Shown: positions 331 to 58,796 of the stretch, piece by piece | Position numbering within the stretch: position 1 is the first letter of the stretch | Layout: each line of letters opens with the position of its first letter | NCBI GenBank assembly: GCA_001783065.1 | Contig: MFQN01000003.1 | Location: forward strand, 15,314-79,313 | Reading direction: 5' to 3' | Length of the DNA stretch: 64,000 nucleotides | DNA from: Candidatus Magasanikbacteria bacterium RIFCSPLOWO2_12_FULL_43_12 | GTDB taxonomy: Bacteria; Patescibacteriota; Patescibacteriia; Magasanikbacterales; UBA922 | Translations under genes and position numbers: made by a program | Notes under the pieces: generated by a model | Databases searched by the model: none | What the model was told of the DNA's origin: nothing | The model's input: the letters and a program-made list of their open reading frames with translations, nothing else

Positions 331-430
331 TGGGCGATAATGGAGTCGAACCATCGACCCGCCTGCATTGACTTGCTGTCAAAGCATGTCGGGCAGGCCT
401 CGTCATTACCGCGCCCGACTTCGCCTTGAC
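331..430 (-). ncRNA. atypical ~95-100 nt tRNA-like element (T-arm ATGG-TTCGACT-CCAT, then 3' acceptor-like TATCGCCC; long internal hairpins); identity unresolved
   Basis: Minus strand reads ...GGTCGATGGTTCGACTCCATTATCGCCCAC, a canonical T-loop followed by an acceptor 3' strand. No convincing 5' acceptor or D-arm could be folded by eye. It lies directly 3' of tRNA-Ile in the same array. Confidence 0.3.
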
Positions 431-459
431 CTCTATATAAGATGATTAAAACTAACGTT

Positions 460-536
460 TGGTGCGCATGCCTGGATTTGAACCAGGGACCTCGTCATTA
501 TCAGTGACGCGCTCTAACCAACTGAGCTACACGCGC
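460..536 (-). tRNA. tRNA-Ile (anticodon GAT), CCA encoded
   Basis: Minus strand GCGCGTG TA GCTC AGTTGGTTA GAGC G CGTCA CTGATAA TGACG AGGTC CCTGG TTCAAAT CCAGG CATGCGC A CCA. All four stems pair (one G-U in the acceptor). Confidence 0.9.
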
Positions 537-560
537 TTATTTTTCTAAAATAAAAACTTG

Positions 561-624
561 CGCTCCCTGCCCCGCACCGACCCGAAGGGTCTGGTGCTGG
601 GGTAACCAATTGAGCTAATCGCCC
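561..624 (-). ncRNA. tRNA 5'-half-like segment (GGGCGAT TA GCTC AATTGGTTA) fused to a conserved 49-nt hairpin module, then GAGC; not a complete tRNA
   Basis: Acceptor-like 7-mer, D-stem 5' strand and D-loop are canonical, but are followed by the hairpin CCCCAGCACCAGACCC TTCG GGGTCGGTGCGGGG and then CAGG GAGC (closing the D-stem). No anticodon or T arm follows. Confidence 0.3.
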
Positions 625-629
625 CCTTG

Positions 630-704
630 TGGGTCTGAGCCGACTTGAACGGCTGGCCTCTTCGATGTCAACGAAGCGCTCTAACCAAACTGAGCTACAG
701 ACCC
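630..704 (-). tRNA. tRNA-Val (anticodon GAC), CCA not encoded
   Basis: Minus strand GGGTCTG TA GCTC AGTTTGGTTA GAGC G CTTCG TTGACAT CGAAG AGGCC AGCCG TTCAAGT CGGCT CAGACCC A; 75 nt, all stems pair. Confidence 0.85.
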
Positions 705-708
705 ATCG

Positions 709-773
709 CGCTCCCTGCCCCGCACCGACCCGAAGGGTCTGGTGCTGGGGTAACCAACTAAGCTACGAGCCCC
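709..773 (-). ncRNA. second tRNA 5'-half-like segment (GGGGCTC GT AGCT TAGTTGGTTA) fused to the identical 49-nt hairpin module
   Basis: Positions 709-757 are identical to 561-609 (49 nt). The upstream 15-16 nt are a different tRNA-like 5' acceptor/D region. It is followed after 4 nt by tRNA-Val. Confidence 0.3.
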
Positions 774-1042
774 TATCGTTTTTTGTAAATATCATGCGAA
801 CCCGCGTCAAGAAGATCAACCGAATCAGAAGCAATAAAATCAAAAAGAACCCGGTACCCGTTCTGTAGCCGAAACACGAAACACTCTTGGAGACGTCCTT
901 TGAGTTTGTGTGTTTTAAGCGAAGGATGATTTGGGTTACGCATGAACACTTTCATTTGCTTATCAAAATCATCTTGAATGCGCGGAGGAAGCTTCTTATA
1001 CGCGCGCTTGAAACGCGGCGAGAAGTTTATATTCATAATCAA
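773..1042 (-). CDS. type II toxin-antitoxin system toxin, RelE/ParE family
   Basis: 89 aa; the pattern ...HPSLKTHKLKGRLQECFVFRL.NGYRVLF... is typical of RelE/ParE mRNA-interferase toxins. It directly follows a small partner ORF, with the upstream stop adjacent to this start. Confidence 0.65.
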   Translation of the reverse strand: MIMNINFSPRFKRAYKKLPPRIQDDFDKQMKVFMRNPNHPSLKTHKLKGRLQECFVFRLQNGYRVLFDFIASDSVDLLDAGSHDIYKKR

Positions 1043-5021: not shown

Positions 5022-5125
5022 AAAATTTTAATTAAACATTAATTTTTTATCTGTCTATATTATACTTCAATCTAAAAAATAGCGCAACAAAAAAACAGCC
5101 ATACGCTGTCATAAATAATAAAGAA

Positions 5126-5700
5126 TGGGGATCGCGGCGCTCCGATGTACATCGGAGCGCCGCGAGTGAAGAAAGAGGAGAATGATGAGGATTACTGGGG
5201 GTTGCGGAGGCGTGTCGCGACCTCGGAGAACAGCACGCGTTGCGCGCTGTCCGCCGCAGGTTGAACTCCTGGGAGCGGAATGTAGAAAGTGTCAGTGCTG
5301 GAGCTAACCTCCACCACCACCCTCCCGCCTGAAATGGTCATTCCGTGGGCAATCCGCCCGTCAAGAAGCCGCTGGGGAACCGAGAACCTGTGAGTTGTTC
5401 CCATTAGATTATCGCCCCCACGATGGCGTCGAACCTGACCATGACCGCCGGCTTGCGATCGTTGGGACGCGCGTAGCACGCCACTCTTGGCAGTTTGCTA
5501 CCTCGCTTTGGGTCCTTTATGACCACCGCACCGCTCTCAGTGCGATCGACATAGAGCACCCCCTTGCCACTAACCGTAACCCTCTTCCTTGTGCACGGAT
5601 TCAAGATTCTCTCCTTTTCTCTAGTACTGTAACCAGCTTCCGCCAACTTGGCGAAGATCCGGCGCCTGCCGGACTTTTTTCACTGGTATGATGGAAGTGA
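5126..5700. other. GC-rich (~60%) ORF-poor island between recG and the surface-protein gene; candidate structured ncRNA or decayed foreign gene
   Basis: Begins with a perfect 14-bp palindrome GCGGCGCTCCGATG TA CATCGGAGCGCCGC (5129-5158). About 550 nt of high GC in a ~40% GC genome; only short overlapping ORFs in different frames (5192..5479, 5404..5646, 5395..5691). Confidence 0.3.
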
Positions 5701-5744
5701 TTGTATACTAAAAACGGTTGACTGTCAAGGGAGCGACGGTGTAA

Positions 5745-5872
5745 ATTTTTAATTTTTAATTTGTAAACAATTTTTAATGAATTAATTTTCAATTACCAAA
5801 TGGCGGCATTATCACTAATTGAAAATTGGAAAATTGGTCATTGTTTAAAAATTACAAATTACAAATTAAAAA
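5745..5872. repeat. AT-rich palindromic intergenic element (AATTTTTAATTTGTAA ... TTACAAATTACAAATTAAAAATT); family member 1
   Basis: Long imperfect AT-only inverted repeat directly downstream of the recG stop; the same family recurs at 11602-11713 and 16040-16165. Confidence 0.5.
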
Positions 5873-8149
5873 TTATTCTAAATGCACTCTCTCTCCCCAC
5901 TCCTCTACTTTCTCTTTCAGCGCCGGATATTTTCCAAAATCCATCCCCCGCGCTAAATCGCGCGCCAGTTTTATAAGCTGTCCGTCTTTCATGGTAGCCA
6001 ACCGAAAATTTTCCATTCCGCTTTGCGCCGTGCCATAGACTTCGCCGGGGCCGCGGTTTTCCAAATCATATTCCGCGACTTTGAAACCGCTGGTGTTTTG
6101 TTCAAAAAATTTCAAACGCTCCGCGACTTTCGGAGAATCGCTATCCGTGAATAAAAAACAATATGATTGATGCGTGCTCCGGCAAACCCGGCCGCGGAAT
6201 TGATGCAATTGCGCCAAACCAAATCTTTCCGCGCCCTCAATCATCATCACGCTGGCATTAGGCACATTCACGCCAACCTCAATTACTGAAGTTGAAACCA
6301 AGATATTGATTGCTTGCCCAGTAGTGATGCTGAAAGCATCTACTACTGTGGATCCATTGCTAAACTGCTCCATTGTTTCTTGTTTTTCAGTTGATTTTAA
6401 TTTCCCATGCAAAAAACCAATTTTCAAATCCGGAAAAATCGTCTTAGATAACTTTTCGTATTCTACCATCACCGTTTTTCTCTCGTCATTTTGAAATTTG
6501 AAATTTGAAATTTGAAATTTATTTGTATCTTGTATCTTAGTATTTTGGTCAGTCTGAATCAACGGACAAACTACAAACACTTGTCGTCCTTGCTTCACTT
6601 GTTCTCTAATAAACTGATACGCTTTATCCCGATTGCGCGGTTCAACCAATCGCGTTTTAACCGGCTTACGCCCTGGCGGCATCTCGTCAATGATTGACAA
6701 ATCCAAATCGCCAAACACCGTCAACGCGAACGACCGCGGAATCGGTGTCGCCGTCATGCTTAAAAAGTGCGGCGTGGTTATCCCCCTCTCCTTGCCAAGG
6801 AGAGGGGCGGGGGGTGAGGTGGTCTCGCCGAGAGAGAGGTCTCGCTCGCCAACCCGCGTTTTCCCTCTCAACACCTTTCTCTGCTCCACTCCAAACCTAT
6901 GCTGTTCATCCACGATAACCAAACCAAGATTTTTAAATTGCACATCTTCAGACAGCAACGCCTGCGTCCCGACAATAACGCCAACTTCCCCATCTTTTAT
7001 TTTATTCCGCAATTTACTTTTACTATTTATCTCCCTATCTCCATTTATCTCCCTTATCATTCGCTGGCTTCCGGTAAACAATCCCAAACTAACTTTATCT
7101 CCCAGCGCCTCCAACAAAGTCTCAAAGTGCTGTTTAGCCAATATCTCGGTCGGACACATCAGCGCGGTCTGAAACCCATTCAACGCCGCGTTATACATCG
7201 CCATGGCCGCGACAACTGTTTTGCCGGAACCAACGTCGCCTTCAAGCAAACGATTCATTGGCTCGTCTTTTTCCAAATCGCGCAAAATTTCCCAGGCCGC
7301 GATTTTTTGTTTTTTAGTTAATTTAAACGGTAAAGAATCAACAAATTTTTTCGTTTCTTTTTCTTTGAATTCAATTTTCGGCGCGACTGCTTTTTTGATT
7401 TCCTGCCTTATCATCTCGCCGCGCAACTGCAAAATAAAAAGCTCATCAAATTTCAACCGGCGTTCCGCGTGTTTCAATTCGTCCTGCGATTCCGGAAAAT
7501 GAATCGCTTTAATCGCTTCAACCAAACTCATAACATCCGCGCGGTCGCGCAAATTTTCCGGCAACCACTCTTTAATCTGGTTCGCGAGATTAATCACCTG
7601 ACTCAACAAAAACCGCAACTGCTTATTCGTAATCCCGCTCGTTAACGAATACATCGGCACAATTCTGGCAGTGTGAGTAGTGCGCGTCCCCTCTCCTCGT
7701 AGAGCCTGCACTGAGCTCGCCGAAGTGAGAGGGGCAGGGTGAGGTCTCTCGCGTTCGTACGCCGGCCCCACCATCTGCGCCCCAAAAAAATCACCGGTAA
7801 CTTTGCCGGAAAGATAAACCCTATCCCCCGCCTTCAAAATCTTCGCGATAAACGGCTGGCCAAACCACACCACGCGCAACTGACCGGTGTCATCAGCCAC
7901 CACCGCCTCGGTGATAATCGTCCGCTTGCGCGGACTGCGCTTGCTCGCTATCAATTCAACCTTGCCGCGCACGCTCACCTGCATTCCCTCGCGCAAATCT
8001 TTAATCGGAACGACTTGACTATAATCTTCATATCGGAAAGGAAAATAAAACAACAAATCTTTGGCTGTTTCAATACCAAGCTGGCGCAGTTTTTTCTCCA
8101 ACGTCTTGCCAACACGGTTTAAATTTGACACCGGTGTAGATAAATCCAT
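5873..8149 (-). CDS. recG: ATP-dependent DNA helicase RecG (with in-frame insertions)
   Basis: 758 aa; wedge domain, helicase motifs ...GDVGSGKTVVAAMAMY..., ...VIVDEQHRFGVEQR..., ...MTATPIPRS... It carries extra segments not expected in RecG: a KFQISNFKFQ tandem block and two GC-rich palindromic insertions. Confidence 0.9.
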   Translation of the reverse strand: MDLSTPVSNLNRVGKTLEKKLRQLGIETAKDLLFYFPFRYEDYSQVVPIKDLREGMQVSVRGKVELIASKRSPRKRTIITEAVVADDTGQLRVVWFGQPFIAKILKAGDRVYLSGKVTGDFFGAQMVGPAYERERPHPAPLTSASSVQALRGEGTRTTHTARIVPMYSLTSGITNKQLRFLLSQVINLANQIKEWLPENLRDRADVMSLVEAIKAIHFPESQDELKHAERRLKFDELFILQLRGEMIRQEIKKAVAPKIEFKEKETKKFVDSLPFKLTKKQKIAAWEILRDLEKDEPMNRLLEGDVGSGKTVVAAMAMYNAALNGFQTALMCPTEILAKQHFETLLEALGDKVSLGLFTGSQRMIREINGDREINSKSKLRNKIKDGEVGVIVGTQALLSEDVQFKNLGLVIVDEQHRFGVEQRKVLRGKTRVGERDLSLGETTSPPAPLLGKERGITTPHFLSMTATPIPRSFALTVFGDLDLSIIDEMPPGRKPVKTRLVEPRNRDKAYQFIREQVKQGRQVFVVCPLIQTDQNTKIQDTNKFQISNFKFQNDERKTVMVEYEKLSKTIFPDLKIGFLHGKLKSTEKQETMEQFSNGSTVVDAFSITTGQAINILVSTSVIEVGVNVPNASVMMIEGAERFGLAQLHQFRGRVCRSTHQSYCFLFTDSDSPKVAERLKFFEQNTSGFKVAEYDLENRGPGEVYGTAQSGMENFRLATMKDGQLIKLARDLARGMDFGKYPALKEKVEEWGERVHLE
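6489..6520. repeat. tandem heptamer (TTGAAAT)x4 plus (TGTATCT)x2 inside the recG coding sequence, in frame
   Basis: ttgaaatttgaaatttgaaatttgaaattt atttgtatcttgtatct; translates (minus) to ...NKFQISNFKFQND... within RecG. Confidence 0.8.
6781..6850. repeat. GC-rich palindromic element, copy 1 (in frame within recG)
   Basis: CCCCTCTCCTTG C CAAGGAGAGGGG, then CGGGGGGTGAGGTGGTCTCGCCGAGAGAGAGGTCTCGC; encodes ...TTSPPAPLLGKERGITTPH... in RecG. Confidence 0.8.
7683..7762. repeat. GC-rich palindromic element, copy 2 (in frame within recG)
   Basis: CCCCTCTCCTCG..(insert)..TGAGAGGGG then CAGGGTGAGGTCTCTCGCG; same arms and tail as copy 1. Confidence 0.75.
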
Positions 8150-8742: not shown

Positions 8743-8790
8743 ATTTTTGAAATTAAAATAGCTTGCAGGGCGTAATGAAATGAAGCCCTG

Positions 8791-8862
8791 TGCACCCGCG
8801 AAGAATCGAACTTCGATTACAAGATCCGCAATCTTGTGTCCTATCCGTTGAACGACGGGTGC
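8791..8862 (-). tRNA. tRNA-Arg (anticodon GCG as read), CCA not encoded
   Basis: Minus strand GCACCCG TC GTTC AACGGATA GGAC A CAAGA TTGCGGA TCTTG TAAT CGAAG TTCGATT CTTCG CGGGTGC A; all stems pair (one G-U in the D-stem). Confidence 0.75.
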
Positions 8863-8989
8863 GTTTGCTTGCCGTATTTTATCACAAAACCCCGTCTTGT
8901 CAACACAACCCCAACTCTTGCTTGGAACAATCATCCGTCGTCGCTCGTCGCGTGTTCCATGATCCATGTTACGTGGATCCTGAATCGTG

Positions 8990-9490
8990 TCAATGTATTT
9001 TCCAATTTCTCGCCGCCCGATCCGTCAACGGTTCCTCTTTTTCAATATCCTCCGACAGATACTCGCGCAGGCTGTGCTTAACCTCAATCGGATTCATGTC
9101 TAAAAGCGGAATACGCAGTATTGGTTGAAGCGTATTTTTAGTGTCCAAAAATAATGTTTTGACTTCCGGCGGGTTGTAAACAATATAAAAATTCTCAAAT
9201 TCTGCGTAGGGATAAAAACGGGTGCCGACAATTACGCCCAAATCGGTTATCTGAAACGGAATCTGACGCGGTTCTTGATGCGATTGCAAAAATAAAATAA
9301 TCGCCGCCAAGATAACGATTAAAGAAAACAAAAAGTTGCCTGTAAAAACTCCATACAAAACCAATGCCAACCCCAAGACCGCTGCCAAAACATACCACAA
9401 CATCCCGCGGGCATGCTTTTCATATTCTAAAATTGTCCACTCGTGGATAACATCGCCAAGTAATGTTTCTTCGGTGATTTTTTGCGGCAT
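8990..9490 (-). CDS. hypothetical membrane protein (two predicted TM helices)
   Basis: 166 aa; hydrophobic stretches LWYVLAAVLGLALVLYGVF and FLFSLIVILAAIILFL. Confidence 0.55.
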   Translation of the reverse strand: MPQKITEETLLGDVIHEWTILEYEKHARGMLWYVLAAVLGLALVLYGVFTGNFLFSLIVILAAIILFLQSHQEPRQIPFQITDLGVIVGTRFYPYAEFENFYIVYNPPEVKTLFLDTKNTLQPILRIPLLDMNPIEVKHSLREYLSEDIEKEEPLTDRAARNWKIH

Positions 9491-9586
9491 ATTAAATTAA
9501 TTCCGTAGTTATATTGTACCAGATACAAAAAACATTGTAAAACTTCCACAGACCCTTTGCCAAGTCTTGCAACTACGTAAACTATA

Positions 9587-9988
9587 TCAATTTTTTAGAT
9601 TGATAGCCAGTTCCGGATCAGCTGTTTCTTCAAGTCGTTCATAACCGACACGAGCCAACCAGAGCTTGAATGGCTCGGCGTTGGGCGAGGGAATTGATTG
9701 AATGAGACGAAGCATTACTTCAGTATCTGCGGCATCGGTAAGACGCATTTTACCATCCGGCGCAATCATTTTCAAAGCGTGACATTTTGTCACGGTTTCT
9801 CCTCCCCCTTCTTTTAATAATCTTTCTTTAAGTTTCCGCCAATAGGCCGCAGGATCAACACTTTTTGTTAAAACAGCAATGATGTCGGAAACGGAAAAAT
9901 ACCAAAACTCTTTTTCTTCGTCCCAATGACGGCGGATTTGTTGTCCTTCAAAAATGGCAATGACTTTGTTTTTTGATTGTTTTTTCAT
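9587..9988 (-). CDS. Bro-N/antirepressor-like domain protein
   Basis: The pattern ...KVIAIFEGQQIRRHWDEEKEFWYFSVSDIIAVLTKS... resembles Bro-N/KilA-N-type domains. The ORF-track start at 10036 overlaps tRNA-Val; the start is taken as ATG at 9986-9988 (MKKQSKNK...). Confidence 0.5.
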   Translation of the reverse strand: MKKQSKNKVIAIFEGQQIRRHWDEEKEFWYFSVSDIIAVLTKSVDPAAYWRKLKERLLKEGGGETVTKCHALKMIAPDGKMRLTDAADTEVMLRLIQSIPSPNAEPFKLWLARVGYERLEETADPELAINLKN

Positions 9989-9997
9989 AAAAACACA

Positions 9998-10073
9998 TGG
10001 TGGTCGCACCTGGATTCGAACCAGGGACCTTCGCAATGTGAATGCGACGCTCTAACCAGCTGAGCCATGCGAC
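9998..10073 (-). tRNA. tRNA-Val (anticodon CAC), CCA encoded
   Basis: Minus strand GGTCGCA TG GCTC AGCTGGTTA GAGC G TCGCA TTCACAT TGCGA AGGTC CCTGG TTCGAAT CCAGG TGCGACC A CCA. Confidence 0.9.
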
Positions 10074-10164
10074 CATAGCTGAAACCATAATATCACATGA
10101 TAATCAAAAAATCAATGATCTGGCCTTGTCAAATCCTCCAAAAACCGCTATACTATGGCCAGAT

Positions 10165-16875: not shown

Positions 16876-16963
16876 CGGAGAGCAATGGAGTCGAACCATA
16901 TTCGTCTTGCGACGAACCGACTACTTATCAGGTAACGTTCTGCGCCGGCAGAATTTACTCTCC
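16876..16963 (-). tRNA. atypical long (88 nt) tRNA-like gene: Ser/Sec-like architecture (9-bp acceptor with G discriminator, 6-bp D-stem/4-nt loop, long variable arm, 4-bp T-stem) but an Ile-type anticodon loop CTGATAA (GAT)
   Basis: Minus strand GGAGAGTAA A TTCTGC CGGC GCAGAA CG GTTAC CTGATAA GTAGT CGG TTCGTC GCAA GACGAA T ATGG TTCGACT CCAT TTGCTCTCC G. It shares the identical 15-mer ATGGTTCGACTCCAT with the element at 331-430. Folding was done by eye. Confidence 0.45.
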
Positions 16964-17009
16964 ATGCGCACCGCCAGCGATATTTTATCATAAAACAATA
17001 AAACAAAAC

Positions 17010-30805: not shown

Positions 30806-31249
30806 TTACTCCTCCGGCCGATAAAACCCGCCGGTATTCACAATTAAAGCCAAATCCCTGATATGCTCGCTCCGCGCCGCTTTTCTCTCTTCTTTTTCTT
30901 CAATCTCCGGCGGTTCTTGCAAACGCAGATAATTTAATTCGTCTTTATCATAATTTTTCCGCCAAACACGCAAGCCCGGACGGCGGACGGTTTGCAATAA
31001 ATTTAAAATAAAATAATGAAATGTTTGACCGTTAATTTTTACAAAGGCCACGATTAGCGACCCGCCGCCAACCACCGCCAAAGTTGTGATGAATAAAGCG
31101 AAATCAGCGTATTTGAAAGCAAGGAAAACCAACAGTCCGGACGTGAGCAGAATTAAAAACTGCCGCACCGTTATCGGCCCGAAAATCTTGTCTTCCACGT
31201 CAATGAATTGCGGGACTACAAATTGTTGCATAGCCAATTTAACAATCAA
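30806..31249 (-). CDS. PrgI/TcpE-like (VirB3-analogous) small membrane protein
   Basis: 147 aa; ...QFVVPQFIDVEDKIFGPITVRQFLILLTSGLLVFLAF... plus a second TM helix. Both the position upstream of virB4 and the motif are characteristic of Gram-positive-type PrgI. Confidence 0.55.
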   Translation of the reverse strand: MIVKLAMQQFVVPQFIDVEDKIFGPITVRQFLILLTSGLLVFLAFKYADFALFITTLAVVGGGSLIVAFVKINGQTFHYFILNLLQTVRRPGLRVWRKNYDKDELNYLRLQEPPEIEEKEERKAARSEHIRDLALIVNTGGFYRPEE

Positions 31250-32502
31250 ATTGTCTTTCCAACCTCCGCTATTCTTTCAAACTCTTCAAATTTAATTCCA
31301 CTCTCTCCCACAACTTCCGTTAGTTTCCTCCTCTCATTCACCGCGCGCTTAATTAAATTCTGATAATCTTTATACACCGGGCTGCTAAACCACGCATCCA
31401 GCGCCTGAAGATATATTATAACAGATTCTTTCCTTAAAGCCGAGAACTTACCGCGCAAAACCTGAATTGAATCAATCCCGCCGGTCGCCAAACGGCGGAA
31501 ATCTGTCAAAGTCATTGTCGCGATCTCATCAATCGGCCCCAGGGAAACTTTCTCCGCCGGTTCAACTTTCGGCGGCACAACATCTTGAACCAACGGTTTG
31601 GTGTTAATCCCCAACACCTCCCCTGCCCTCCTCCGAGGAGGGAGCTTGTTAGCCACACCATCGGATCCGCCTGCCGGCGATACAGAGAAAGTCTGTGAGT
31701 GTATCCTAACACCTCCATCGCCCTCCTCCGAGGAGGGAATTTTTGAGCTCCCATCTCGGAGAGGGGTAGGCCTTCGAGGCTCTAAGGAGCCCTCAGGCTC
31801 TCGAAGAGGGGGTGTGTTCGCCAAATGCCAAATTTTTTTTATCGCCGCGATCACCGCAGCTGTTTGTTCTTCAGAAAATCCCAACCCGCCTTCCGCCTCG
31901 TTTCTTTGCAAATACCCGCGCATTTGCTCTTCATTCCTCACTCCCTTTACAAAAGACACGACCAACGAATTCAATCTCCCTCTCATTTCATCTTTAACCG
32001 GAAATCTGATTTCTTTTACAAACAAATCATACAAATCACCTCTCTTGTCAGGCAAAACATTTACTGCTTTAATTTTCATCGCTTCATCAGCAGAATCTTC
32101 CAACAACGACTTATTATCCTCTCTCGTCCACGCTTTCACCTCACTATTTTTCTGTTTCTTGTTATCTGTCTCCTGCATTATATCGTCAACTCTTTGGGTT
32201 TTGTTAATTGTGTTTTGTGTTTTGCTCTTCACTGTTCGCACATACTTCGCTTCATCCACAAAAATATCCTTCACCGGCGCCGCCGTCGCTACCGCTTCCT
32301 CGCCAATCTTCGCCGGCAGATTTGACCCCAGCTCTCGGACTTCAGCTTTCGGATTTATGATTTTAGGTTTAGCAATCTCAACACTCGCCGATTGAGTTTT
32401 GTTAATTGTGTTTTGTGTTCTGTACACGCCAAACTCATCCCAACTCATCCTTACGGACGTGCCGTCGGATTTTTTGACGAGGATTGTGGGTTGATTGGGC
32501 AT
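31246..32502 (-). CDS. hypothetical protein (418 aa) carrying in-frame GC-rich palindromic insertions
   Basis: Starts MPNQPTILVKKSDG (shared 5' module). Internal TQNTINKTQ duplication. The segment ...VANKLPPRRRAGEVLG... is encoded by CCTCCTCCGAGGAGGG palindromes. Confidence 0.55.
   Translation of the reverse strand: MPNQPTILVKKSDGTSVRMSWDEFGVYRTQNTINKTQSASVEIAKPKIINPKAEVRELGSNLPAKIGEEAVATAAPVKDIFVDEAKYVRTVKSKTQNTINKTQRVDDIMQETDNKKQKNSEVKAWTREDNKSLLEDSADEAMKIKAVNVLPDKRGDLYDLFVKEIRFPVKDEMRGRLNSLVVSFVKGVRNEEQMRGYLQRNEAEGGLGFSEEQTAAVIAAIKKIWHLANTPPLREPEGSLEPRRPTPLRDGSSKIPSSEEGDGGVRIHSQTFSVSPAGGSDGVANKLPPRRRAGEVLGINTKPLVQDVVPPKVEPAEKVSLGPIDEIATMTLTDFRRLATGGIDSIQVLRGKFSALRKESVIIYLQALDAWFSSPVYKDYQNLIKRAVNERRKLTEVVGESGIKFEEFERIAEVGKTI
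31601..31812. repeat. GC-rich palindromic element cluster, copy 5 (CCCTCCTCCGAGGAGGG x2, CCCATCTCGGAGAGGGG, GGCTCTCGAAGAGGGGG), in frame within the 31246..32502 gene
   Basis: ctcccctgccctcctccgaggagggag ... cgccctcctccgaggagggaa ... cccatctcggagagggg ... ggctctcgaagagggggtg. Confidence 0.7.
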
Positions 32503-34058: not shown

Positions 34059-34559
34059 TTAAGCGGTGCTTTTTTTATACTCTAGCTTTCCGCGCAAATT
34101 TTCCATAAAAAATATTTTCTCTTTTGCGTGTTGTCTCAACAGTCCGGAGCACCTTTTGTAATTCGGGCTTAATACTGCCAATAATTTCCTTTTTCCGTAC
34201 AGGTATCTAACCAAAGAATAAAAATCGCCGTCGCTTGTTACTACCAATGCCTTATCAAATTTTTCTAATTCTATCATCACCTGAAGCACCAAATCAGCAT
34301 CAACATTTCCTTTCAAATCACCATTTCCATCAGGAATAGTCGGCTTAAATATTAAAATAAAACCCGCCTCTTGTAATTTATTATACAAGTCTTGATTGCC
34401 GCTGACAAAACCAATAAATAAATACGCTCTCTCAATATGATATTTCTCTTTTAAATATCGTCTGAATCTTTTGTAATCTAATTTCCACCCTAAACTCAAA
34501 ATCCCTAAATGCAGATTCTGACTGTCAATAAACGCGTAATTGTTTCCTATTTTTGGCAT
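34059..34559 (-). CDS. NYN-domain (LabA-like PIN) protein
   Basis: ...NYAFIDSQNLHLGI..., ...AYLFIGFVSGNQDLYNKLQEAGFILIF..., ...NVDADLVLQVMIE...ALVVTSDGDFYSLVRYL...; the start is taken at MPKIGNN because the ORF-track N-terminus is translation of the repeat module in another frame. Confidence 0.7.
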   Translation of the reverse strand: MPKIGNNYAFIDSQNLHLGILSLGWKLDYKRFRRYLKEKYHIERAYLFIGFVSGNQDLYNKLQEAGFILIFKPTIPDGNGDLKGNVDADLVLQVMIELEKFDKALVVTSDGDFYSLVRYLYGKRKLLAVLSPNYKRCSGLLRQHAKEKIFFMENLRGKLEYKKSTA

Positions 34560-34562
34560 ATG

Positions 34563-34610
34563 GTCGGATTTTTGACGAGAATTGTGGGTTTGGTGGGCAT
34601 ACCGGCACAA
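34563..34610. repeat. MPxxPTILVK 5' module, copy 3
   Basis: Reverse strand atgcccaccaaacccacaattctcgtcaaaaatccgac. Confidence 0.65.
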
Positions 34611-36242: not shown

Positions 36243-39200
36243 TTATTCTCCTCTTCTTTTTCCTTCACTTGCCCTTGCAAGCGAACGCCTTATACGCTCT
36301 GGGTTAAACCGATAGGAAGAATCTTGATTTACCCAAGCCACTAATTCTTCAACATTGTTTATGTTTTCACCGCAAATATTCATATTAAGGTTGCCCTTCA
36401 TACCATCATCAAACGATAAACCGCTTCGCTCGGCAAGTGAACCAAACAGGGCAGCAGGGTTATTCTGTAAAAATGCGGCGTAATTACCACGGAGTCGCTT
36501 TTCGACTTCTTTTTTGCGCTGATCTTTGTCAATAATATGTTTAAAAGTGCTTCTGAAATATGCTGAATCATCGTCGCCTATTTTTGTTCTTCCATTTTCA
36601 TCCTGACGTATTGTCTCTCCAGCGGCCATACCGGCGATGTGATCTTTATTTCTGCCATCAACTTTAGCGAATTCGCGCTGATTAGACAATCCAGCAAATG
36701 TTTCTCTGATTGCGTCATCGCATTCTTCACTCGCTGTATAATCTATTGTTCCAAAATCTTCCTGCATTTGACCTATGCTGTGGGTTTTTAAACGAGATAA
36801 ACGTTGGTCAAGACCCAATTTACGCCACTCGCCCAACACAAACTCCTTGCCTTTGTGGCCCAAGTTACCGCGTAACATTCCTTCATTCATATCATAATAA
36901 GTGTGTCCGCCGTCATCAATGTGGCCAGTGTTCATCGCCAAATTTTTAAAGTCTGCCAACATCTCAAATGCTTCCGTAAATTCATCCATAGACTTCATAA
37001 ATGTCGCAGCGGCCATCTTTGCACCATCCGCCATTCCCGCCACTGGTTCAATAAATTTTTCTGTATAAGCCATAAGTTGTTCAATGCTGGCGTCTACCGC
37101 GGCAGTGGCTCTGACATCACCTTCTCCTGCCTTTTCTATTTGCTCATCTGTTATCATCCCGGCTTCCTTCGCTACCCGCATTCTTGAGAGTTTGTCTGCG
37201 CCAGGACCGACTATGTTTGCATAATTGCTATGTGCTATCTCTGCCAATTGTTTGTTTGCTTCGCCGTAACCTTCGTCTGTACTCTCCATACGCCACAAAA
37301 CAGCTTCTTCAGCTTGCATTTGTTTCCTATCCCCTCCCATGCCAATCAATTTTTGTACTTGCGCGGTTCGATCAGCCCCAGAACGATTATCTTTTGGATC
37401 CCAATGTAACTTGTTAATAAATATTTCTTCCAACGCTTCCGCCTCTTCTCTTTTTTCCCCGGTCAGAGTTTTCTTGCTGGTCGCCATCTTTGCAACCCGA
37501 GCTAATAAATCATCCATCCAGCCATTAGACGTAAGATGTTTGACATGGGCCATCATCTGCGCTTTTTGGTCGGTGGTAATCTCTTTACCTTGTTTTTGCA
37601 ATTTAAAAAATTGACCTAGTGTTCCCATGGCGTTTACCACTGACTGCTCGCGCTCCACCCCCTGCAATCTTTCCGTCTGTTTTTTTACCCAATCTTTAAA
37701 AGCAGAAGCTGGAGTTTTAAAATTATACCTCTCCAATGTGAAAATATCCGTGGCGTGATCAGCCGCTTCAGCTTTATTCGCTCCGGTAATGTCTTTGTTG
37801 TATTCAGCTATCATCTGCGCTTGCGCCATCTTCGCGCCGACATTTGTCAACGACAACGCTTCTAATGACAGTTTTATACCTTTTGCCTGAGCGCCTTCCA
37901 AAGCATCTTTCAATTCTTTCGCTCCTTTTTTGAATAAATCGCCCATTTTTTTATCCTTGATACCGTCAATAAAGGCCTTTGACGCTTCCGCTCCCATCTT
38001 TGAAGCTACCTCGGCTGAGAATAGTGAACCATAACTCTCTAACCCAAGAATAATTTTTTTTGCTTCTGTTTCCGATGCCTCTACTCCGGCACCAACCGCG
38101 GCAGCTTTCTGGGCTGCCTGTAAATAAGCAATGGCAACGTTACTATTCTTGCGTTCTACCTCTTTTCCGTTCGCCATCACCGGTTCGCCATCCTTGCCTA
38201 TCAAGAACCCACTATATAAGTCTTCTTCTATTTCTTCCAGTCGCTTACTAACCTCCGTGTCACGATCGCGTTGGTCCATTATTTCTTTCAATTCCTTACT
38301 AATTGGTGGTTTTTCTTTACTATCACTGTCACGATAATTTTTTATTTCTTTTTCGTCTGCATCCGGTAGTGTACTACCAGCATCCGCCACTACTTTATCC
38401 CAAGCATCACTTGCTTTAATTGTTTTTTCTGTCGCCGCCTTGTAGACATCTCGTTGTTCCGCAATAGTGCGACTGCCGTCTTCCACTCTTTCTGTCTTTT
38501 CTAAATCTGTGGCAATTTGAGCTTTTTTTTCTTCTATGGTCCTTTTTGCGTCTTCAACCGCATTTACCGCCTTCTGCCTTTCGTCTTCCAACTTCTTAGC
38601 TGCCTTTTCCTCCAAAAGTCCTTTGCTGTTGCCTTGAATTTTCACATCCAGATCTTCTATCTTTTTTTCTTCCGCCACCTTCATCTTTCCAAGTTGAGTT
38701 TTGTCCTTGTCAGTCAAAACTCCCTCGGTATCTTTCAACTTTTCACTAATTTTTTCCAATGTTTCTTCCGCTTTATTCTTCTCCTCTTTATCCTCAATCA
38801 TCTCCGTATATTCTCCGCTTTTCTTTAGTATTTTCAATCCTTTTTCCGCAAATTTAATTTCCTCATTTGCTTTATTTAAATTCGTCTGCGCCAATAGCAC
38901 ATCGGTGTCCGTCTTTAATTTTGCGTCAACAACAACCTGTATCTTAGCCTCTGCGGTTCGCAAGATATTTTTTGCGCCAGCCTCTTCTGCCTCTGCCGCT
39001 ACTAAATCACTGCTCTTTCGTCCTTCTCGCGCTTCGTCGCTATCTTTGACAGCTTTCTCCATATCAGGCCTCGCCCTTTCTATAATTTTCTTCCGCTCAC
39101 TGCCTATCAGCGCCTTCCCTTCTTCCTCCCACCTCTGCTGTCTAATCGCAAAACGCGCGGCTTCCCCGGCCAGTGTGGACACCTCTCCTGTGTCTGGATT

Positions 39201-40826
39201 GAAATAGGCTTTGCCGTCTTTATAACGCGGTCCGTGCATTGCTTTTTCTTTTGCCTCTGCCACTCCTTCGGCGTCTCTATGCTTACTCCTTTCCTCATAC
39301 GCTTCTAACTCACCATGTCTGCTGCGAGCGCGATTGCCCCATTGCCCGCTGGATTGCATTTTGCCTAACAAATCTTCTGCATATTCCGCTGTATGTTCCG
39401 CCGCTTTCAGGTGTTTTTTCCTCCTAGCTGTTCCACCAGCCAAAACTCCCACATTCCAACCAAAAAGTTTACGCATACCCCTGCCCATATAATCTTCTTT
39501 AGCCAAGTCACCCTTACCTCCAGCCCCAGTGTACCAGGCATCCTTGGTTCTCGCCCATTTCATCTTTGCGTGTTCGGTCCAAAACTCTCCTCCCAAAGGC
39601 ATGTGCCACAGCGCGCCTTTCCCAGCCAACTTTACTCCGCGTCCTGTCGCCCCAGCCAACCACCTCCCCGCGGCATAACCGGTCGCGATGGTGGCGACTT
39701 TGCCGAAGAAATCTTTAGCCTTGGACGCGACACTGCCGCCGGCAACGTTGAGTTTCTGCACTTCCTGCAAGCCGACGAATAACAATACTATGGCCACCAA
39801 AAAATTCGCCATGTTTTCCCAAGTGGTAACCGCGGATAAAGTTAAAGCGCCGACTGAATCAATGCTCCCTGCCTGCAACATTTGGTCGGTAATGCCGATG
39901 TCGCTACCGAGCGTACCGGAGCCGGCAGTGGCAAAAGCCAGCCACATGAAAAACGAAATTGTTGGCGCGAGCACGACATAATTGGAAAATTCCTTCCACC
40001 ATTCGCCATAGCGATTCGTGGTTTGCGGCAAAGCGATGAATAAAAACGCCAACGGAGATAAAATAATCAAAACCCACAGCACTGTCATCCGCAAAAGCAT
40101 CATTATCGCGTAAGCGCCCATTACCAGCATGGCAAGCAAAGCGAAAAGCATGGCCACAACAGAAGCCACCAGTGTCCGGCCCAACAAATTAAAACTTTCT
40201 CCACCAACGCCAACATCATTTTTCCCGGTGGTGATAGCGTAAATCTTTTCAAAATGAAACATGTTGATCAGATTGCCGCCGGCTGTCGCGGAAATCGCGC
40301 TGGCAAAAGTCAGAGTGAAAACATGCGCCGCGTCAATGAAAAGCTGGCAAATCAAATTACTGAAATTAACAAACACCGCGCTTAAAATAAGTTTGACTAG
40401 AGTCTTATTCCATTGATATTGTTCAATGCCGAGAATGGTGCCAATGGCGATCACCAGCAAAATCACCACAAAAAACATATTGACCACATCGCGTACCATC
40501 AGCCAGCCAAGCTTGACTACCGGAGAATCAATATAGTTGTTGTATTGAGCTAACGCGATAAAAAAGCGCAGGAAAAAAATGCTCATTTTTATAAAAAACT
40601 CACCCAAACCCAGGGCCAGATTCGTAAACATGTCCATTATGCCGCCGGAAATAACCCCCATATCGCCCAAAGCTGGGTTTGCCATTGAAGTGAGCGGGAA
40701 CATCACCGCGCCAATCACCAAAATTACAAACAAAAAACTCAAGCCTGTTTTGCCTTTCCTAAACACAAGCAAACACAAAAATCGTTTCAGGATAAGAAAA
40801 AATTTTCGCTTTAATAAGCTCTTCAT
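36243..40826 (-). CDS. giant VirB6/TrbL-like polytopic membrane protein with a ~1000-aa charged coiled-coil/low-complexity C-terminal extension
   Basis: 1527 aa. The first ~450 aa contain at least 8 hydrophobic helices (FLFVILVIGAVMF, LVAIVLLFVGL, etc.). The remainder is Glu/Lys/Ala-rich and heptad-like (...EEKAAKKLEDERQKAVNAVEDAKRTIEEKKAQIATDLEK...). Confidence 0.65.
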   Translation of the reverse strand: MKSLLKRKFFLILKRFLCLLVFRKGKTGLSFLFVILVIGAVMFPLTSMANPALGDMGVISGGIMDMFTNLALGLGEFFIKMSIFFLRFFIALAQYNNYIDSPVVKLGWLMVRDVVNMFFVVILLVIAIGTILGIEQYQWNKTLVKLILSAVFVNFSNLICQLFIDAAHVFTLTFASAISATAGGNLINMFHFEKIYAITTGKNDVGVGGESFNLLGRTLVASVVAMLFALLAMLVMGAYAIMMLLRMTVLWVLIILSPLAFLFIALPQTTNRYGEWWKEFSNYVVLAPTISFFMWLAFATAGSGTLGSDIGITDQMLQAGSIDSVGALTLSAVTTWENMANFLVAIVLLFVGLQEVQKLNVAGGSVASKAKDFFGKVATIATGYAAGRWLAGATGRGVKLAGKGALWHMPLGGEFWTEHAKMKWARTKDAWYTGAGGKGDLAKEDYMGRGMRKLFGWNVGVLAGGTARRKKHLKAAEHTAEYAEDLLGKMQSSGQWGNRARSRHGELEAYEERSKHRDAEGVAEAKEKAMHGPRYKDGKAYFNPDTGEVSTLAGEAARFAIRQQRWEEEGKALIGSERKKIIERARPDMEKAVKDSDEAREGRKSSDLVAAEAEEAGAKNILRTAEAKIQVVVDAKLKTDTDVLLAQTNLNKANEEIKFAEKGLKILKKSGEYTEMIEDKEEKNKAEETLEKISEKLKDTEGVLTDKDKTQLGKMKVAEEKKIEDLDVKIQGNSKGLLEEKAAKKLEDERQKAVNAVEDAKRTIEEKKAQIATDLEKTERVEDGSRTIAEQRDVYKAATEKTIKASDAWDKVVADAGSTLPDADEKEIKNYRDSDSKEKPPISKELKEIMDQRDRDTEVSKRLEEIEEDLYSGFLIGKDGEPVMANGKEVERKNSNVAIAYLQAAQKAAAVGAGVEASETEAKKIILGLESYGSLFSAEVASKMGAEASKAFIDGIKDKKMGDLFKKGAKELKDALEGAQAKGIKLSLEALSLTNVGAKMAQAQMIAEYNKDITGANKAEAADHATDIFTLERYNFKTPASAFKDWVKKQTERLQGVEREQSVVNAMGTLGQFFKLQKQGKEITTDQKAQMMAHVKHLTSNGWMDDLLARVAKMATSKKTLTGEKREEAEALEEIFINKLHWDPKDNRSGADRTAQVQKLIGMGGDRKQMQAEEAVLWRMESTDEGYGEANKQLAEIAHSNYANIVGPGADKLSRMRVAKEAGMITDEQIEKAGEGDVRATAAVDASIEQLMAYTEKFIEPVAGMADGAKMAAATFMKSMDEFTEAFEMLADFKNLAMNTGHIDDGGHTYYDMNEGMLRGNLGHKGKEFVLGEWRKLGLDQRLSRLKTHSIGQMQEDFGTIDYTASEECDDAIRETFAGLSNQREFAKVDGRNKDHIAGMAAGETIRQDENGRTKIGDDDSAYFRSTFKHIIDKDQRKKEVEKRLRGNYAAFLQNNPAALFGSLAERSGLSFDDGMKGNLNMNICGENINNVEELVAWVNQDSSYRFNPERIRRSLARASEGKRRGE

Positions 40827-40985: not shown

Positions 40986-41195
40986 TCACTCTAACCCAGC
41001 CGCGCGTAAAATCGCTTTTAATGTGCCTATCGGCAAATTCTTTGAATGATACGGAACCACAGCTCTTTTCTCTGGTAACGGTTGGTAAAAAACATAATGA
41101 CTGCCTGAAACATGATCCAAAATAAAACCATTTTCTTGCAATAATTTTATTACTTGTTTTGAAGTCAGCCGTGGAGTTTTAGGCATAAGCCACAT
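40986..41195 (-). CDS. hicA: HicA-family toxin
   Basis: 69 aa; ...LTSKQVIKLLQENGFILDHVSGSHYVFY... is the YcfA/HicA signature. Confidence 0.8.
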   Translation of the reverse strand: MWLMPKTPRLTSKQVIKLLQENGFILDHVSGSHYVFYQPLPEKRAVVPYHSKNLPIGTLKAILRAAGLE

Positions 41196-41421
41196 CCAAT
41201 GAGGTAATAAAACTATGTTCGTCGCTTACGACTTCGCCACCATGTTTGCGAACACTCTTAAGATACGAATCAATCGCATCAATCGCCATTTCTTTTGCTT
41301 CAGTCAAAGTGCGGCCGAAAGTAATACAGCCAGCTAAGGCCGGCACAATAACCGTAAAACCGCCCTCAATTTCAGGACGAAAAATTAAATTGTAATGCAA
41401 ATTTTTTTTCATATTTTTCAC
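41179..41421 (-). CDS. hicB: HicB-family antitoxin
   Basis: 80 aa; ...YNLIFRPEIEGGFTVIVPALAGCITFGRTLTEAKEMAIDAI... RNase-H-like HicB fold pattern; overlaps hicA by 17 nt. Confidence 0.8.
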   Translation of the reverse strand: MKNMKKNLHYNLIFRPEIEGGFTVIVPALAGCITFGRTLTEAKEMAIDAIDSYLKSVRKHGGEVVSDEHSFITSLDVAYA

Positions 41422-41479
41422 AATATTATTAACACATATACACTACAGAATTTAATCAAAAAAGTCAATACACACCTTA

Positions 41480-41550
41480 TGCGTCTTATTACACTCCCCC
41501 GTACACCACCACCCAGCTATTCAACACCTGAACGCGAGGAATGATAAAAA
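41480..41550. repeat. ~70-nt duplicated fragment of the 60694..64000 gene (homologous to 60871-60945), intergenic
   Basis: cttatgcgtcttattacactcccccgtacaccaccacccagctattcaacacctgaacgcgagg versus cttatacgtcttatcacactctcccgtacaccacccccaattatccaacacctgaacacgagg. Confidence 0.7.
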
Positions 41551-41672
41551 TAGTATACTAATACTCACTGATGATAATTTGAATAACATTCATATTTTCT
41601 TTTTCTAACAAAAAACCATCTCAATATTAAGACAGTTTTTTGTCTGAAAGAATTTTGTTTGCATAAAATCTT

Positions 41673-41987
41673 TCATTTTAATTTTATCCCCGTTCTTTTA
41701 ATTTCAAAAACCATCGGGTCAGAATCATTTTGAAAATCGCGAACACTAAAGACATGCGCCTCTAATCGCCTGTCAACTGCCATGCCTATTTTTGAATACA
41801 GCGCCAATTTCCTCCAAAAATTAATTTTGCTGTCATCAACAACAACAGCGACGTCTATGTCGCTCCACTTGCCCGCCCGCCCGGAAACACAAGAACCAAA
41901 CAAATAGGCCGCCTTGACTGTCAATCCGTTGTCTTCCAACATTTCCGCGTAATTTTTTACGATCTTTTTTACTTTAGCTTTTGACAT
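41673..41987 (-). CDS. nucleotidyltransferase (MNT-type antitoxin)
   Basis: ...AYLFGSCVSGRAGKWSDIDVAVVVDD... (G-S-x10-D-x-D); 104 aa; overlaps the HEPN partner. Confidence 0.8.
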   Translation of the reverse strand: MSKAKVKKIVKNYAEMLEDNGLTVKAAYLFGSCVSGRAGKWSDIDVAVVVDDSKINFWRKLALYSKIGMAVDRRLEAHVFSVRDFQNDSDPMVFEIKRTGIKLK

Positions 41988-42358
41988 AACATCTCATATA
42001 AGGCGACAATCCGTTTATAATACCCTTCCGTAAAATCTCTCGTGCATACTTGATAAAACTGCAACTTGAAATCGGGATAGCGCGTCGCGATATTAAAATT
42101 GTTCACCTCCTTTAGGAATAATATGTATTCCTCCGACAAATTTAATTTAGCCAAGTCATGCAAACGGACTAGGTCATGAATGCGCGGAGACTGTTTCTTC
42201 GTGATTTTCACGACCAGCGCTTTCAAAATCTTTTCTAAAACTATGTGTCCGAAAAATAAACAGTCTGAATAACGTTTCAACTTTTTTAAACCAAGCATCG
42301 TGTCAAAATCATGCTCAGCTGTCTTTTTCCAATACATGACAACTTCTTTGTAATCCAT
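41969..42358 (-). CDS. HEPN-domain protein (toxin partner)
   Basis: 129 aa all-helical with an Rx4-6H-type motif (...RIHDLVRLHD...); directly upstream of and overlapping the NTase gene. Confidence 0.7.
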   Translation of the reverse strand: MDYKEVVMYWKKTAEHDFDTMLGLKKLKRYSDCLFFGHIVLEKILKALVVKITKKQSPRIHDLVRLHDLAKLNLSEEYILFLKEVNNFNIATRYPDFKLQFYQVCTRDFTEGYYKRIVALYEMLCQKLK

Positions 42359-57641: not shown

Positions 57642-57680
57642 ACGGGGATATTATACCAAAAAGAAGTAAAAAGTCAATGC

Positions 57681-57760: not shown

Positions 57761-57764
57761 TGTT

Positions 57765-58459: not shown

Positions 58460-58499
58460 AGTCGCAATATATTAAATATACCCTGATTCCCTCTAAAAG

Positions 58500-58778: not shown

Positions 58779-58796
58779 GTCTTAAAGAATTTTGTC

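Follow-up and report, generated by a model that had tools for sequence, protein, structure and literature searches.

Disrupted tRNA-gene copies and a probable family of selfish micro-palindromes beside intact tRNA genes in Candidate Phyla Radiation bacteria

Why would a bacterial chromosome hold pieces of tRNA genes, interrupted by hairpins, packed around two complete tRNA genes? The question is raised by a locus in a 64,000-nt stretch of DNA (hereafter the window) from Candidatus Magasanikbacteria bacterium RIFCSPLOWO2_12_FULL_43_12, a member of the Candidate Phyla Radiation (CPR; contig MFQN01000003.1, positions 15,314 to 79,313). Read on the minus strand, the locus consists of a 5' tRNA-gene fragment (A), tRNA-Val(GAC), a second 5' fragment (B), tRNA-Ile(GAT) and an element termed E3. 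The region is probably an assembly of displaced tRNA-gene remnants that have been colonized by a CPR-wide family of micro-palindromic selfish DNA. This answer draws on the homology of B and E3 to an intact tRNA gene, the recurrence of the same architecture in other CPR loci, the occurrence of the insertions in both orientations and their presence in protein-coding DNA.

Alignment shows B and E3 to be two pieces of a single former tRNA-Ile(GAU) gene: across their tRNA-derived segments, 63/66 positions agree with an intact tRNA-Ile(GAU) from a related CPR locus, L013 (GGGCGATTAGCTCAGTTGGTTAGAGCGCGTCACTGATAATGACGAGGTCAATGGTTCGAGTCCATTATCGCCCACCA). Fragment B (561..624, minus strand) holds positions 1-22 of the former gene at 624-603, where it reads GGGCGAT TA GCTC AATTGGTTA (21/22 identical to L013), and positions 23-27 at 565-561, where GAGCG closes the D stem (5/5). 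E3 (459-331) holds positions 37-47 at 398..408 (TAATGACGAGG; 11/11 identical to L013, and identical also to the window's own tRNA-Ile) and positions 47-74 at 331..358 (26/28), the latter comprising the end of the variable loop, the T arm, the acceptor 3' strand ATCGCCC and the discriminator A, without CCA. The end of E3, GATGG TTCGACT CCATT ATCGCCC A, stands 3 nt ahead of the ATG of a methyltransferase gene. Fragment GGGCGATTAGCTCAGTTGGTTA of B is also present in another related locus, L004. Three interruptions separate the segments: between positions 21 and 22 a hairpin of 37 nt, then ~150 nt that include the present tRNA-Ile, and in the variable loop (397-359) a hairpin of 39 nt.

The former gene is no longer complete. 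B and E3 together lack positions 28-36 (CGTCACTGA), the part with the anticodon stem's 5' strand and the larger share of the loop; the most that may be left of these positions is a degenerate CGTTAGTTT directly after the embedded tRNA-Ile. With the insertions removed, ARAGORN finds no tRNA in B plus E3, and restoring the 9 nt of positions 28-36 brings back tRNA-Ile(GAU). When B is rebuilt with CGTTA as the anticodon stem, ARAGORN reports a 'tRNA-Lys(UUU)' with G32, which is treated as an artefact of junction choice or as a decayed Ile anticodon arm. The acceptor stem of the outer copy (GGGCGAT...ATCGCCC) differs from that of the inner gene (GCGCGTG), and because an intact tRNA-Ile(GAU) sits inside it, the outer copy is redundant.

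An initial annotation made from the sequence alone had given the minus-strand order of fragments and tRNAs exactly as it is read here, had noted that ATCGCCC is the exact complement of the GGGCGAT of B, and had described the locus as unexplained by ordinary annotation; ARAGORN and Rfam indeed call only the Val and Ile genes in the region. It had asked whether B and E3 form one tRNA; the answer is yes for their origin in the same former gene and no for a complete cloverleaf, as nt 28-36 are absent and ARAGORN calls none. The identity of the hairpins in both 5' halves is likewise upheld, with a correction of their size from 49 nt to 37 nt (a 33-nt hairpin plus CAGG).

The embedded tRNA-Ile(GAT) at 536-460 (minus strand) is intact, encodes CCA, is called by ARAGORN, scores 74.5 bits with the Rfam tRNA model and is presumed functional; it sits within the disrupted older tRNA-Ile gene. 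Upstream of it lies an AT-rich spacer or leader of 24 nt (537..560), delimited by reading the sequence, which probably came along with the replacement tRNA-Ile gene. No consensus promoter was scored in this spacer, and a promoter role is a guess. The right flank of the embedded gene (409..459, minus strand) starts CGTTAGTTTTAAT, possibly a decayed copy of tRNA positions 28-40 (a weak match of 9/13), and its last bases, ...GTCGGGCGCGG, resemble the 3' end of a further palindromic element, by a comparison that is again weak (the reverse complement of CCTGCCCGAC is GTCGGGCAGG). The insertion in the variable loop (359..397, minus strand; CCTGCCCGACATGCTTTGACAGCAAGTCAATGCAGGCGG) is 39 nt long, lies in the opposite orientation with its CCTG tail first, and has a hairpin z of -3.1. 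At permissive thresholds E3 also yields a weak Rfam tRNA-Sec match (19.6 bits), because the variable-loop hairpin mimics a long variable arm. The T arm of E3 (ATGGTTCGACTCCATT) is identical to that of a tRNA-like gene elsewhere in the window (16876-16964, minus strand).

Fragment A (709..773, minus strand) is an orphan tRNA-gene remnant, read from the sequence and uncalled by ARAGORN or Rfam. Its tRNA part at 773/772-751 reads (G)GGGCTCG TA GCTT AGTTGGTTA; 772-751 correspond to the acceptor 5' strand, U8-A9, the D stem and the D loop, and the extra G (G773), the first base of A, is shared with the stop codon of the upstream ParE-like toxin gene. The D-stem closure GAGCG follows at 713-709, after the insertion at 750-714. 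Neither an anticodon arm nor a T arm is present in A, and no 3' partner for it (CGAGCCC/CGAGCCCC) occurs on the window's minus strand. A 4-nt spacer, CGAT, separates A from tRNA-Val(GAC) (704-629, minus strand), which is intact, called by ARAGORN, supported by Rfam tRNA at 67 bits and presumed functional; CAAGG lies between this gene and B.

The palindromic insertions of A and B are exact duplicates with family members in 12 other loci. Copy 1 (714..750, minus strand) reads CCCC-A-GCACC-A-GACCC TTC GGGTC GGTGC GGGG followed by the CAGG tail and lies between tRNA positions 21 and 22; copy 2 (566..602, minus strand) repeats this sequence between the same two tRNA positions. Against an expectation of 0, the 64 kb contain exactly two copies of the 33-nt hairpin. 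A and B share a repeat of 66 nt at 92% identity, with all mismatches in the tRNA-derived part, and about 50 nt of it are identical, TTGGTTA and GAGCGC included. All six differences between A and B fall within the 22 acceptor and D-arm bases and none within the ~50 identical nt, a clustering whose chance is C(22,6)/C(72,6), about 5e-4 by our own count. Because the differences are confined to tRNA-derived bases, the insertion is either younger than the fragments or was homogenised between A and B.

The region is no assembly artefact, because a 477-nt stretch is identical in 13/15 independent strain contigs, three of them from NCBI metagenome-assembled genomes (MAGs). Contig MFQJ01000040.1 of assembly GCA_001783015.1 has this locus as well. 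Strain contig L022 carries a single-nucleotide polymorphism that breaks a pair in the hairpin of B. Strain contig L026 (ERZ27254759 k141_1050310) has a 148-nt deletion equivalent to window 598-745, exactly the 148 nt between the two identical insertions, so that A is fused to the hairpin of B and tRNA-Val(GAC) is gone. L026 is either a true recombinant or an assembly collapse. The variant suggests that the two identical 50-nt stretches may serve as recombination substrates, in which case identical insertions would be able to delete a tRNA gene.

The same architecture recurs in other CPR loci. A scan for a D-loop context with a free hairpin interior (GGTTACCCC N GGGGCAGGGAGC) finds five loci in GTDB species genomes (a Candidatus Komeilibacteria, two Kerfeldbacteria and two 'Patescibacteria group' MAGs) and nine in JGI metagenomes, the latter including the window's own contig (L014) and a chance match outside any tRNA (L011). 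The foreign pattern matches number 14, with 13 in tRNA context and 12 distinct loci, the near-identical L006 and L010 being counted as one. In viral contigs neither the D-loop pattern nor a conserved hairpin was found. At 12/12 distinct foreign loci, an intact tRNA either lies within a hairpin-carrying tRNA copy or follows it 4-60 nt downstream. Wherever the outer anticodon is readable, it is that of the intact tRNA (8/8 copies: Ile-GAT in L001, L002, L006 and L008, Ile-TAT in L005, Val-TAC in L003, Val-GAC in L009 and Ala-TGC in L013). The intact tRNAs at all loci are of normal length and free of such insertions. The initial annotation had allowed for decayed duplicates in which the hairpin is not conserved; as a family, the hairpin is kept next to tRNA genes in other genomes.

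Several outer copies are well preserved. Canonical tRNA folds are obtained after removal of the insertions from L002, L006, L008 (six insertions) and the tRNA-Ala copy of L013. The 5' part of L002 reads GGGCATG TA GCTC AGTTGGTTA, a hairpin and GAGC A CTT, after which the inner tRNA-Ile follows, and its 3' part reads CA CTGA, a hairpin and TAA TGAAG AGGTC GATGG TTCGAGT CCATC CATGCCC ACCA. The insertions of L008 lie in the D stem, in the D loop, at 27/28 (with the inner tRNA), at 43/44, in the T stem and in the T loop; once they are taken out, a perfect tRNA-Ile is left, and the compensated pair 6:67 is its sole difference from the inner gene. L013 contains a disrupted Ile-type gene around an intact tRNA-Ile, then a disrupted tRNA-Ala around an intact tRNA-Ala. 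Exon mapping shows that the exons are collinear and overlap by only 0-1 nt at the hairpin junctions, and there is therefore no target duplication.

Other copies are fragmentary or decayed. The outer copy of L009 has mismatched stems and is not called as a tRNA after insertion removal, and the hairpin stem of L007 is degenerate (z = -0.7). In window A, L001, L004, L007 and L012, 5' fragments stand alone or stacked and have no 3' parts. L004 has two stacked 5' fragments upstream of an intact tRNA-Ile, without 3' fragments; L001 has a tRNA-Ile 5' fragment upstream of an intact gene and a tRNA-Phe 3' fragment with three hairpins downstream of an intact tRNA-Phe.

The outer acceptor stems are perfectly paired yet locus-specific (GGGCATG/CATGCCC, GGGCGCG/CGCGCCC, GGGCGTA/TACGCCC and GGGCGAT/ATCGCCC), and at the Ile locus of L013 the outer acceptor is GGGCGTA and the inner one GGGCGAT. 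The outer allele of the window, GGGCGAT...ATCGCCC, is thus the inner intact allele in L013, and it is the outermost fragment in L004, which argues that tRNA-Ile loci have been overwritten repeatedly by different alleles. When synteny was followed via the downstream methyltransferase, homologues of the tRNA locus were absent upstream of related methyltransferases in the other genomes examined.

What the interruptions are is indicated by their build. The thirty insertions that were delimited measure 18-45 nt and have a G+C content of 47-84%, against 41-64% for the genomes that carry them. Almost every one is made of a hairpin and a 4-nt single-stranded tail, either 3' CAGG or 5' CCTG (variants CTTG and CATG), and a handful are perfect 20-mer palindromes that bear both tails (CCTGCCTGCCGGCAGGCAGG); the D-loop copies of L001 Phe and L004 Ile hold an identical 20-mer palindrome. 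One common build opens with stem 1, CCCC(G)/(C)GGGG, which is followed by an unpaired A and stem 2, then by a bulged A, stem 3 and a loop, with stems 2 and 3 varying by paired changes between the window, L008, L006 and L013. Hairpin potential exceeds chance, with z <= -2.2 in 25/30 insertions relative to shuffles, and the window copy folds at -14 kcal/mol with DNA parameters (z = -4.65).

Relative to the tRNA sense strand, the insertions are found in either orientation. Elements with a 5' tail are reverse complements of the 3'-tail family and align better after flipping: the L006 anticodon-loop and L007 D-loop elements score 51 flipped and 33.5 unflipped, and the L013 Ala variable-loop and L013 Ile D-loop elements score 45 and 35. 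The bulge is mirrored accordingly: one orientation has a bulged A in its 5' arm, the other a bulged T in its 3' arm. Related sequences occupy different sites, with 32/41 identities between the window variable-loop element and the L013 Ala D-loop element and 33/35 between the L013 Ala variable-loop element and the element at 35/36 of L002 Ile. Outside the tRNA locus, a strict scan of the window for a hairpin plus CAGG gives three matches against 0.125 expected. Palindromes of this kind lie at 31622-31642 (minus strand; CCCTCCTCGGAGGAGGG plus CAGG), inside an open reading frame (ORF) at 31246-32502, and at 60023-60047 (plus strand; CCTCCCCCTCGTAGGGGGAGG plus CAGG), in or near the ORF at 59778-60077.

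Elements of the same build also reside in a core protein gene. In the window's recG, whose closest homologues are labelled Candidatus Magasanikbacteria, an element consisting of CCTG and CCCCTCTC...GAGAGGGG occupies 7688..7738 (minus strand); its 51 nt form 17 codons in frame, with the translation PAPLTSASSVQALRGEG at about residues 137-153, and it is evidently translated. An alignment of 25 CPR homologues, distant ones, shows this site empty in 14 and filled with 7-45 extra residues in 11, and in three filled homologues the DNA at the site consists of other GC-rich palindromes, one with a CCTG tail. On this alignment, the site is an apparent insertion hot spot across CPR RecG homologues. A second palindrome lies in frame at residues 419-459 (window about 6770-6900, minus strand). 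Among the database entries for RecG in these lineages, many are partial or come from split gene calls. The two orientations, the varied tRNA sites and the in-frame RecG copies together argue that the insertions behave as DNA-level selfish palindromes and not as introns.

A scenario that accommodates these observations begins with an older tRNA-Ile(GAU) gene, now B plus E3, which would have been displaced by inserted DNA with working tRNA genes. Another older tRNA gene, now reduced to its 5' third (A), would have been displaced likewise, by insertion into or next to it. The present tRNA-Ile(GAU) would have landed at about position 27/28 of the old gene and tRNA-Val(GAC) just downstream of A. 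The old copies, being redundant, could tolerate insertions, and the remnants would then have been colonized by GC-rich palindromes of 18-45 nt, here twice in D loops (A and B) and once, inverted, in the variable loop of E3. The elements would persist only where they are harmless, in dead tRNA copies and in permissive in-frame protein loops such as the two RecG sites. At the RNA level, the fragments are probably mere leader, spacer and trailer of a Val-Ile transcript, from which RNase P and RNase Z would release both real tRNAs and the fragments would be discarded. The order of events, the mobility of the elements as DNA, the remnants' lack of function and the fate of the RNA are what we infer from the anatomy.

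Several observations weigh against this scenario. The outer exons of L002, L008 and L013 are perfectly preserved despite 3-6 insertions, which could mean that the outer copy is still under selection; the reading preferred here is that of two once-functional alleles, recent displacement and fast insertion. An insertion rate sufficient to riddle a 77-nt remnant ahead of any build-up of point mutations should heavily burden live tRNA genes, and we know of no mechanism that would target the insertions. No transposase or recombinase candidate, and no Y1/HUH transposase in particular, was found among the scanned ORFs of the window. The sample of loci is biased, as the search pattern demanded a D-loop insertion after GGTTA. 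Finally, no filled/empty polymorphism at the tRNA site was seen among close strains, and movement of the elements is therefore inferred rather than observed.

A tentative alternative is that the intact tRNA genes are themselves the cargo of a new selfish cassette, carried between palindrome arms. Arms of this kind surround the tRNA-Ala of L013 (CCCCGAACTAAAAATTTGTG, tRNA-Ala, TACACAAATTTTAGTACGGGG), similar arms are found in L003 and L009, and L004 has the left arm only. Such a cassette might enter the resident gene for the same tRNA, destroy that gene and become indispensable. Successive invasions could conceivably leave Russian-doll remnants, as in the three levels of L004 and the differing outer and inner genes of L013 and the window, and the short hairpins might then be cassette copies that are empty or have collapsed, or else the cassette's recombination sites. 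Each of these steps, like the cassette itself, is possible but doubtful.

That the fragments are ordinary attachment-site scars of lost integrative elements, with the hairpins as unrelated terminators or processing stems, is improbable. In its favour, integration into tRNA genes is classic, the locus borders on a ParE-like toxin/antitoxin pair, the methyltransferase-linked locus varies between relatives, and direct repeats of 4-6 nt flank some embedded tRNAs (ACTT in L002, GCAGTC in L006). The distance from fragment to intact gene is, however, only 4-60 nt with no element between, and the fragments usually differ from the intact tRNA, whereas classical attachment-site duplication gives identical repeats of whatever part the element carries. 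Such scars would also leave unexplained the 3-6 hairpins in a single 77-nt copy and the copies in RecG. Recombinase genes lie 1-1.5 kb from three related loci, namely Xer-like tyrosine recombinases near L006 (1448-2368) and L009 (8082-9002) and a large serine recombinase near L008 (2047-3552), but all three are outside the repeats, and no integrase was found within 10 kb of the window locus. A small GIY-YIG nuclease adjoins the L013 locus (L013 60-359, minus strand); it was considered as a shared neighbour and set aside, since only L013 has one. A link of the GIY-YIG, Xer-like and serine recombinase neighbours to the rearrangements is possible, unproven and may be coincidence. Among the options offered by the initial annotation, 'integration scars' nonetheless comes nearest to the displaced remnants favoured here.

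A selected role in cis has a similarly low probability. The 5' fragment and its hairpin would then be a cis-acting RNA or DNA element for the downstream tRNA, in the form of a leader guiding RNase III or RNase P, a transcription signal, or a block to recombination or re-integration at the remnant. The fragment is always upstream of, and on the same strand as, the intact tRNA, but the upstream position is partly imposed by the search pattern. Conservation of the hairpin base and unpaired A, together with covariation of stems 2 and 3 (window, L008, L006, L013), would suit such an element, although hairpin stems decay at some loci (L007) and equivalent hairpins occur in downstream 3' remnants (L001 Phe, L008, E3) and in coding genes. 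Invariance in 13/15 strain contigs would be expected as well, but these contigs are too closely related to reveal constraint. Most tRNA genes of the window (Arg, Val-CAC, Ser) have no such leader.

Least probable, and by a clear judgement improbable, is that the hairpin copies are functional tRNA genes from which several intervening sequences, one of them holding another tRNA, are protein-spliced or otherwise excised. On that account the inner tRNA would first be excised by RNase P and RNase Z and B and E3 then be assembled, as a bacterial counterpart of the archaeal multi-intron and split genes. The canonical cloverleaves recovered from L002, L006, L008 and L013-Ala, the perfect pairing of outer acceptor stems that differ between loci, the conservation of the hairpin base across lineages and the existence of unusual tRNA introns in Patescibacteria (PMC13011429) would all fit. 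In the window, however, B/E3 lacks nt 28-36 and A lacks a 3' half; each hairpin copy found adjoins an intact tRNA, with the same anticodon in 8/8 readable cases, so that none is needed; and the hairpin occurs in no intact or lone tRNA. The two orientations would give different RNA motifs, insertions lie also in T loops and T stems, the same elements stand in frame in a protein gene and are evidently translated, and some outer copies are visibly decayed (L009, L007). No bulge-helix-bulge (two 3-nt bulges and a 4-bp helix) was seen at the junctions in the folds, where the insertions are self-contained hairpins with a 4-nt tail, and the scanned ORFs of the 64-kb window yielded no EndA- or RtcB-like Pfam match. 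The functional split, permuted or trans-assembled tRNA entertained in the initial annotation lacks support at this locus on the same grounds: the loss of nt 28-36, the missing 3' partner of A, the intact tRNA-Ile inside and the lack of a bulge-helix-bulge. Its notion of the hairpin as a tRNA-specific RNA module likewise gives way, as the same kind of element is found in both orientations and inside protein-coding genes. Archaeal-type introns (no bulge-helix-bulge motif; a bacterial genome with RecG, Der, Pth, DprA and TopA), group I introns (insertions of 18-45 nt; no intron family by cmscan at E<=10 over 1-1500) and TIGR-Tas arrays or CRISPR-like repeats (unrelated architecture) were considered and rejected.

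Displaced remnants bearing selfish palindromes have partial parallels among known systems. Repetitive extragenic palindromic sequences (REPs) carry a 5' GTAG tetranucleotide, and the CPR palindromes resemble them in consisting of a hairpin and a 4-nt tail. Like REPs, Rickettsia palindromic elements (RPEs) and MITEs (miniature transposable elements with inverted repeats), they are short, non-coding palindromic DNA in a reduced genome, with related copies in either orientation (PMC10969869). RPEs also reside in frame in conserved genes (PMC10969869), and the CPR palindromes are similarly tolerated in frame in a conserved protein gene, here recG, and in RNA-gene sequences, with no transposase nearby. 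They are much shorter than RPEs (18-45 nt against about 100-150 nt) and lack terminal inverted repeats around a core. They show no target duplication of the MITE kind, and no cognate transposase like the RAYT of REPs was found among the scanned ORFs of the window. A genome holds few copies, which have diverged strongly except at the hairpin foot, and the association with tRNA-gene remnants is strong.

Archaea too have disrupted tRNA genes, with multiple-intron, split and tri-split genes and transposing introns (Thermoproteales, Nanoarchaeum, Caldivirga; PMC4390854, PMC10714607). Shared features are short structured interruptions at many non-canonical positions (D loop, variable loop, T arm) and one sequence family in different tRNAs. 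The CPR loci differ in their bacterial host, in the lack of a bulge-helix-bulge, in a copy that is always redundant with an intact gene and sometimes incomplete, and in insertions that take both orientations and also enter protein genes; nothing indicates splicing. The group I introns of Patescibacteria tRNA genes, the subject of the closest published work found, are ribozymes of several hundred nt, restricted to the anticodon loop and proven to self-splice (PMC13011429). They belong to the same phylum, they too let tRNA genes escape annotation, and their site has a counterpart in the insertion at anticodon position 35/36 in L002, but the insertions described here are plain hairpins of 18-45 nt anywhere in the gene, without an Rfam intron match. 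Genomic islands and prophages also leave partial tRNA copies beside an intact tRNA at a locus that varies between relatives; here no island lies between, and the fragments are nested around the intact gene, non-identical to it and furnished with palindromic insertions. Full-text searching found no description of this architecture in the literature, and one outside the searched library is possible.

The remnants confuse CPR tRNA annotation, being missed or called oddly, as with the weak tRNA-Sec match of E3, and any census of 'missing' or 'split' tRNAs in Patescibacteria must recognise them. Some of the smallest bacterial genomes hold active-looking micro-palindromes, both in RNA-gene remnants and in core proteins such as RecG, and the Rickettsia parallel bears on the tolerance of reduced genomes for selfish DNA. 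The nested tRNA-Ile alleles point to frequent replacement of essential tRNA genes by incoming DNA. CPR organisms are thought to rely on DNA uptake, and tRNA-gene replacement offers a testable route of horizontal exchange in them.

The window, a CPR chromosome, encodes a VirB4-like ATPase and many toxin-antitoxin pairs besides RecG, Der, Pth, DprA and TopA. The 90-nt tRNA-like gene at 16876-16964, whose T arm matches that of E3, is called tRNA-Ile(GAT) by ARAGORN and reaches 42.7 bits with the tRNA-Sec model (cut-off 47). Its acceptor stem measures 8 bp, its T stem 4 bp and its D stem 6 bp with a loop of 4 nt; the variable arm is long and the discriminator is G. The 8/4 build is that of an 'allo-tRNA' (PMC5389517), here with a GAU anticodon. 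A TAAAAT box upstream, and a hairpin and T-run downstream, give the gene the look of a transcription unit of its own.

Between the gene for a 1210-aa surface protein and recG, 850 nt without a convincing ORF (5022-5872) contain a GC-rich middle, a perfect 34-nt palindrome (5132-5165) and terminal AT-rich inverted repeats of 52 nt (5744-5867); against Rfam at E<=1 this stretch gives nothing beyond noise. Three giant ORFs lie on the minus strand at 36243-40826 (1527 aa), 49606-56778 (2390 aa) and 60694-63945 (1083 aa), the first and last without a Pfam match. At 8790-10074, tRNA-Arg(GCG) and tRNA-Val(CAC) surround small ORFs, including one for a Bro-N domain protein (9587-10036). No hairpin-bearing fragments were found there, and the segment is possibly what remains of a prophage or island at a tRNA gene. 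The toxin-antitoxin complement includes a cluster at 41179-42358 and 56947-59138, with three HEPN/nucleotidyltransferase pairs, a HepT-like RNase and a HicB-like antitoxin, as well as an NYN-domain protein (34059-34610), a barstar-like ORF and the ParE-like pair beside the tRNA locus.

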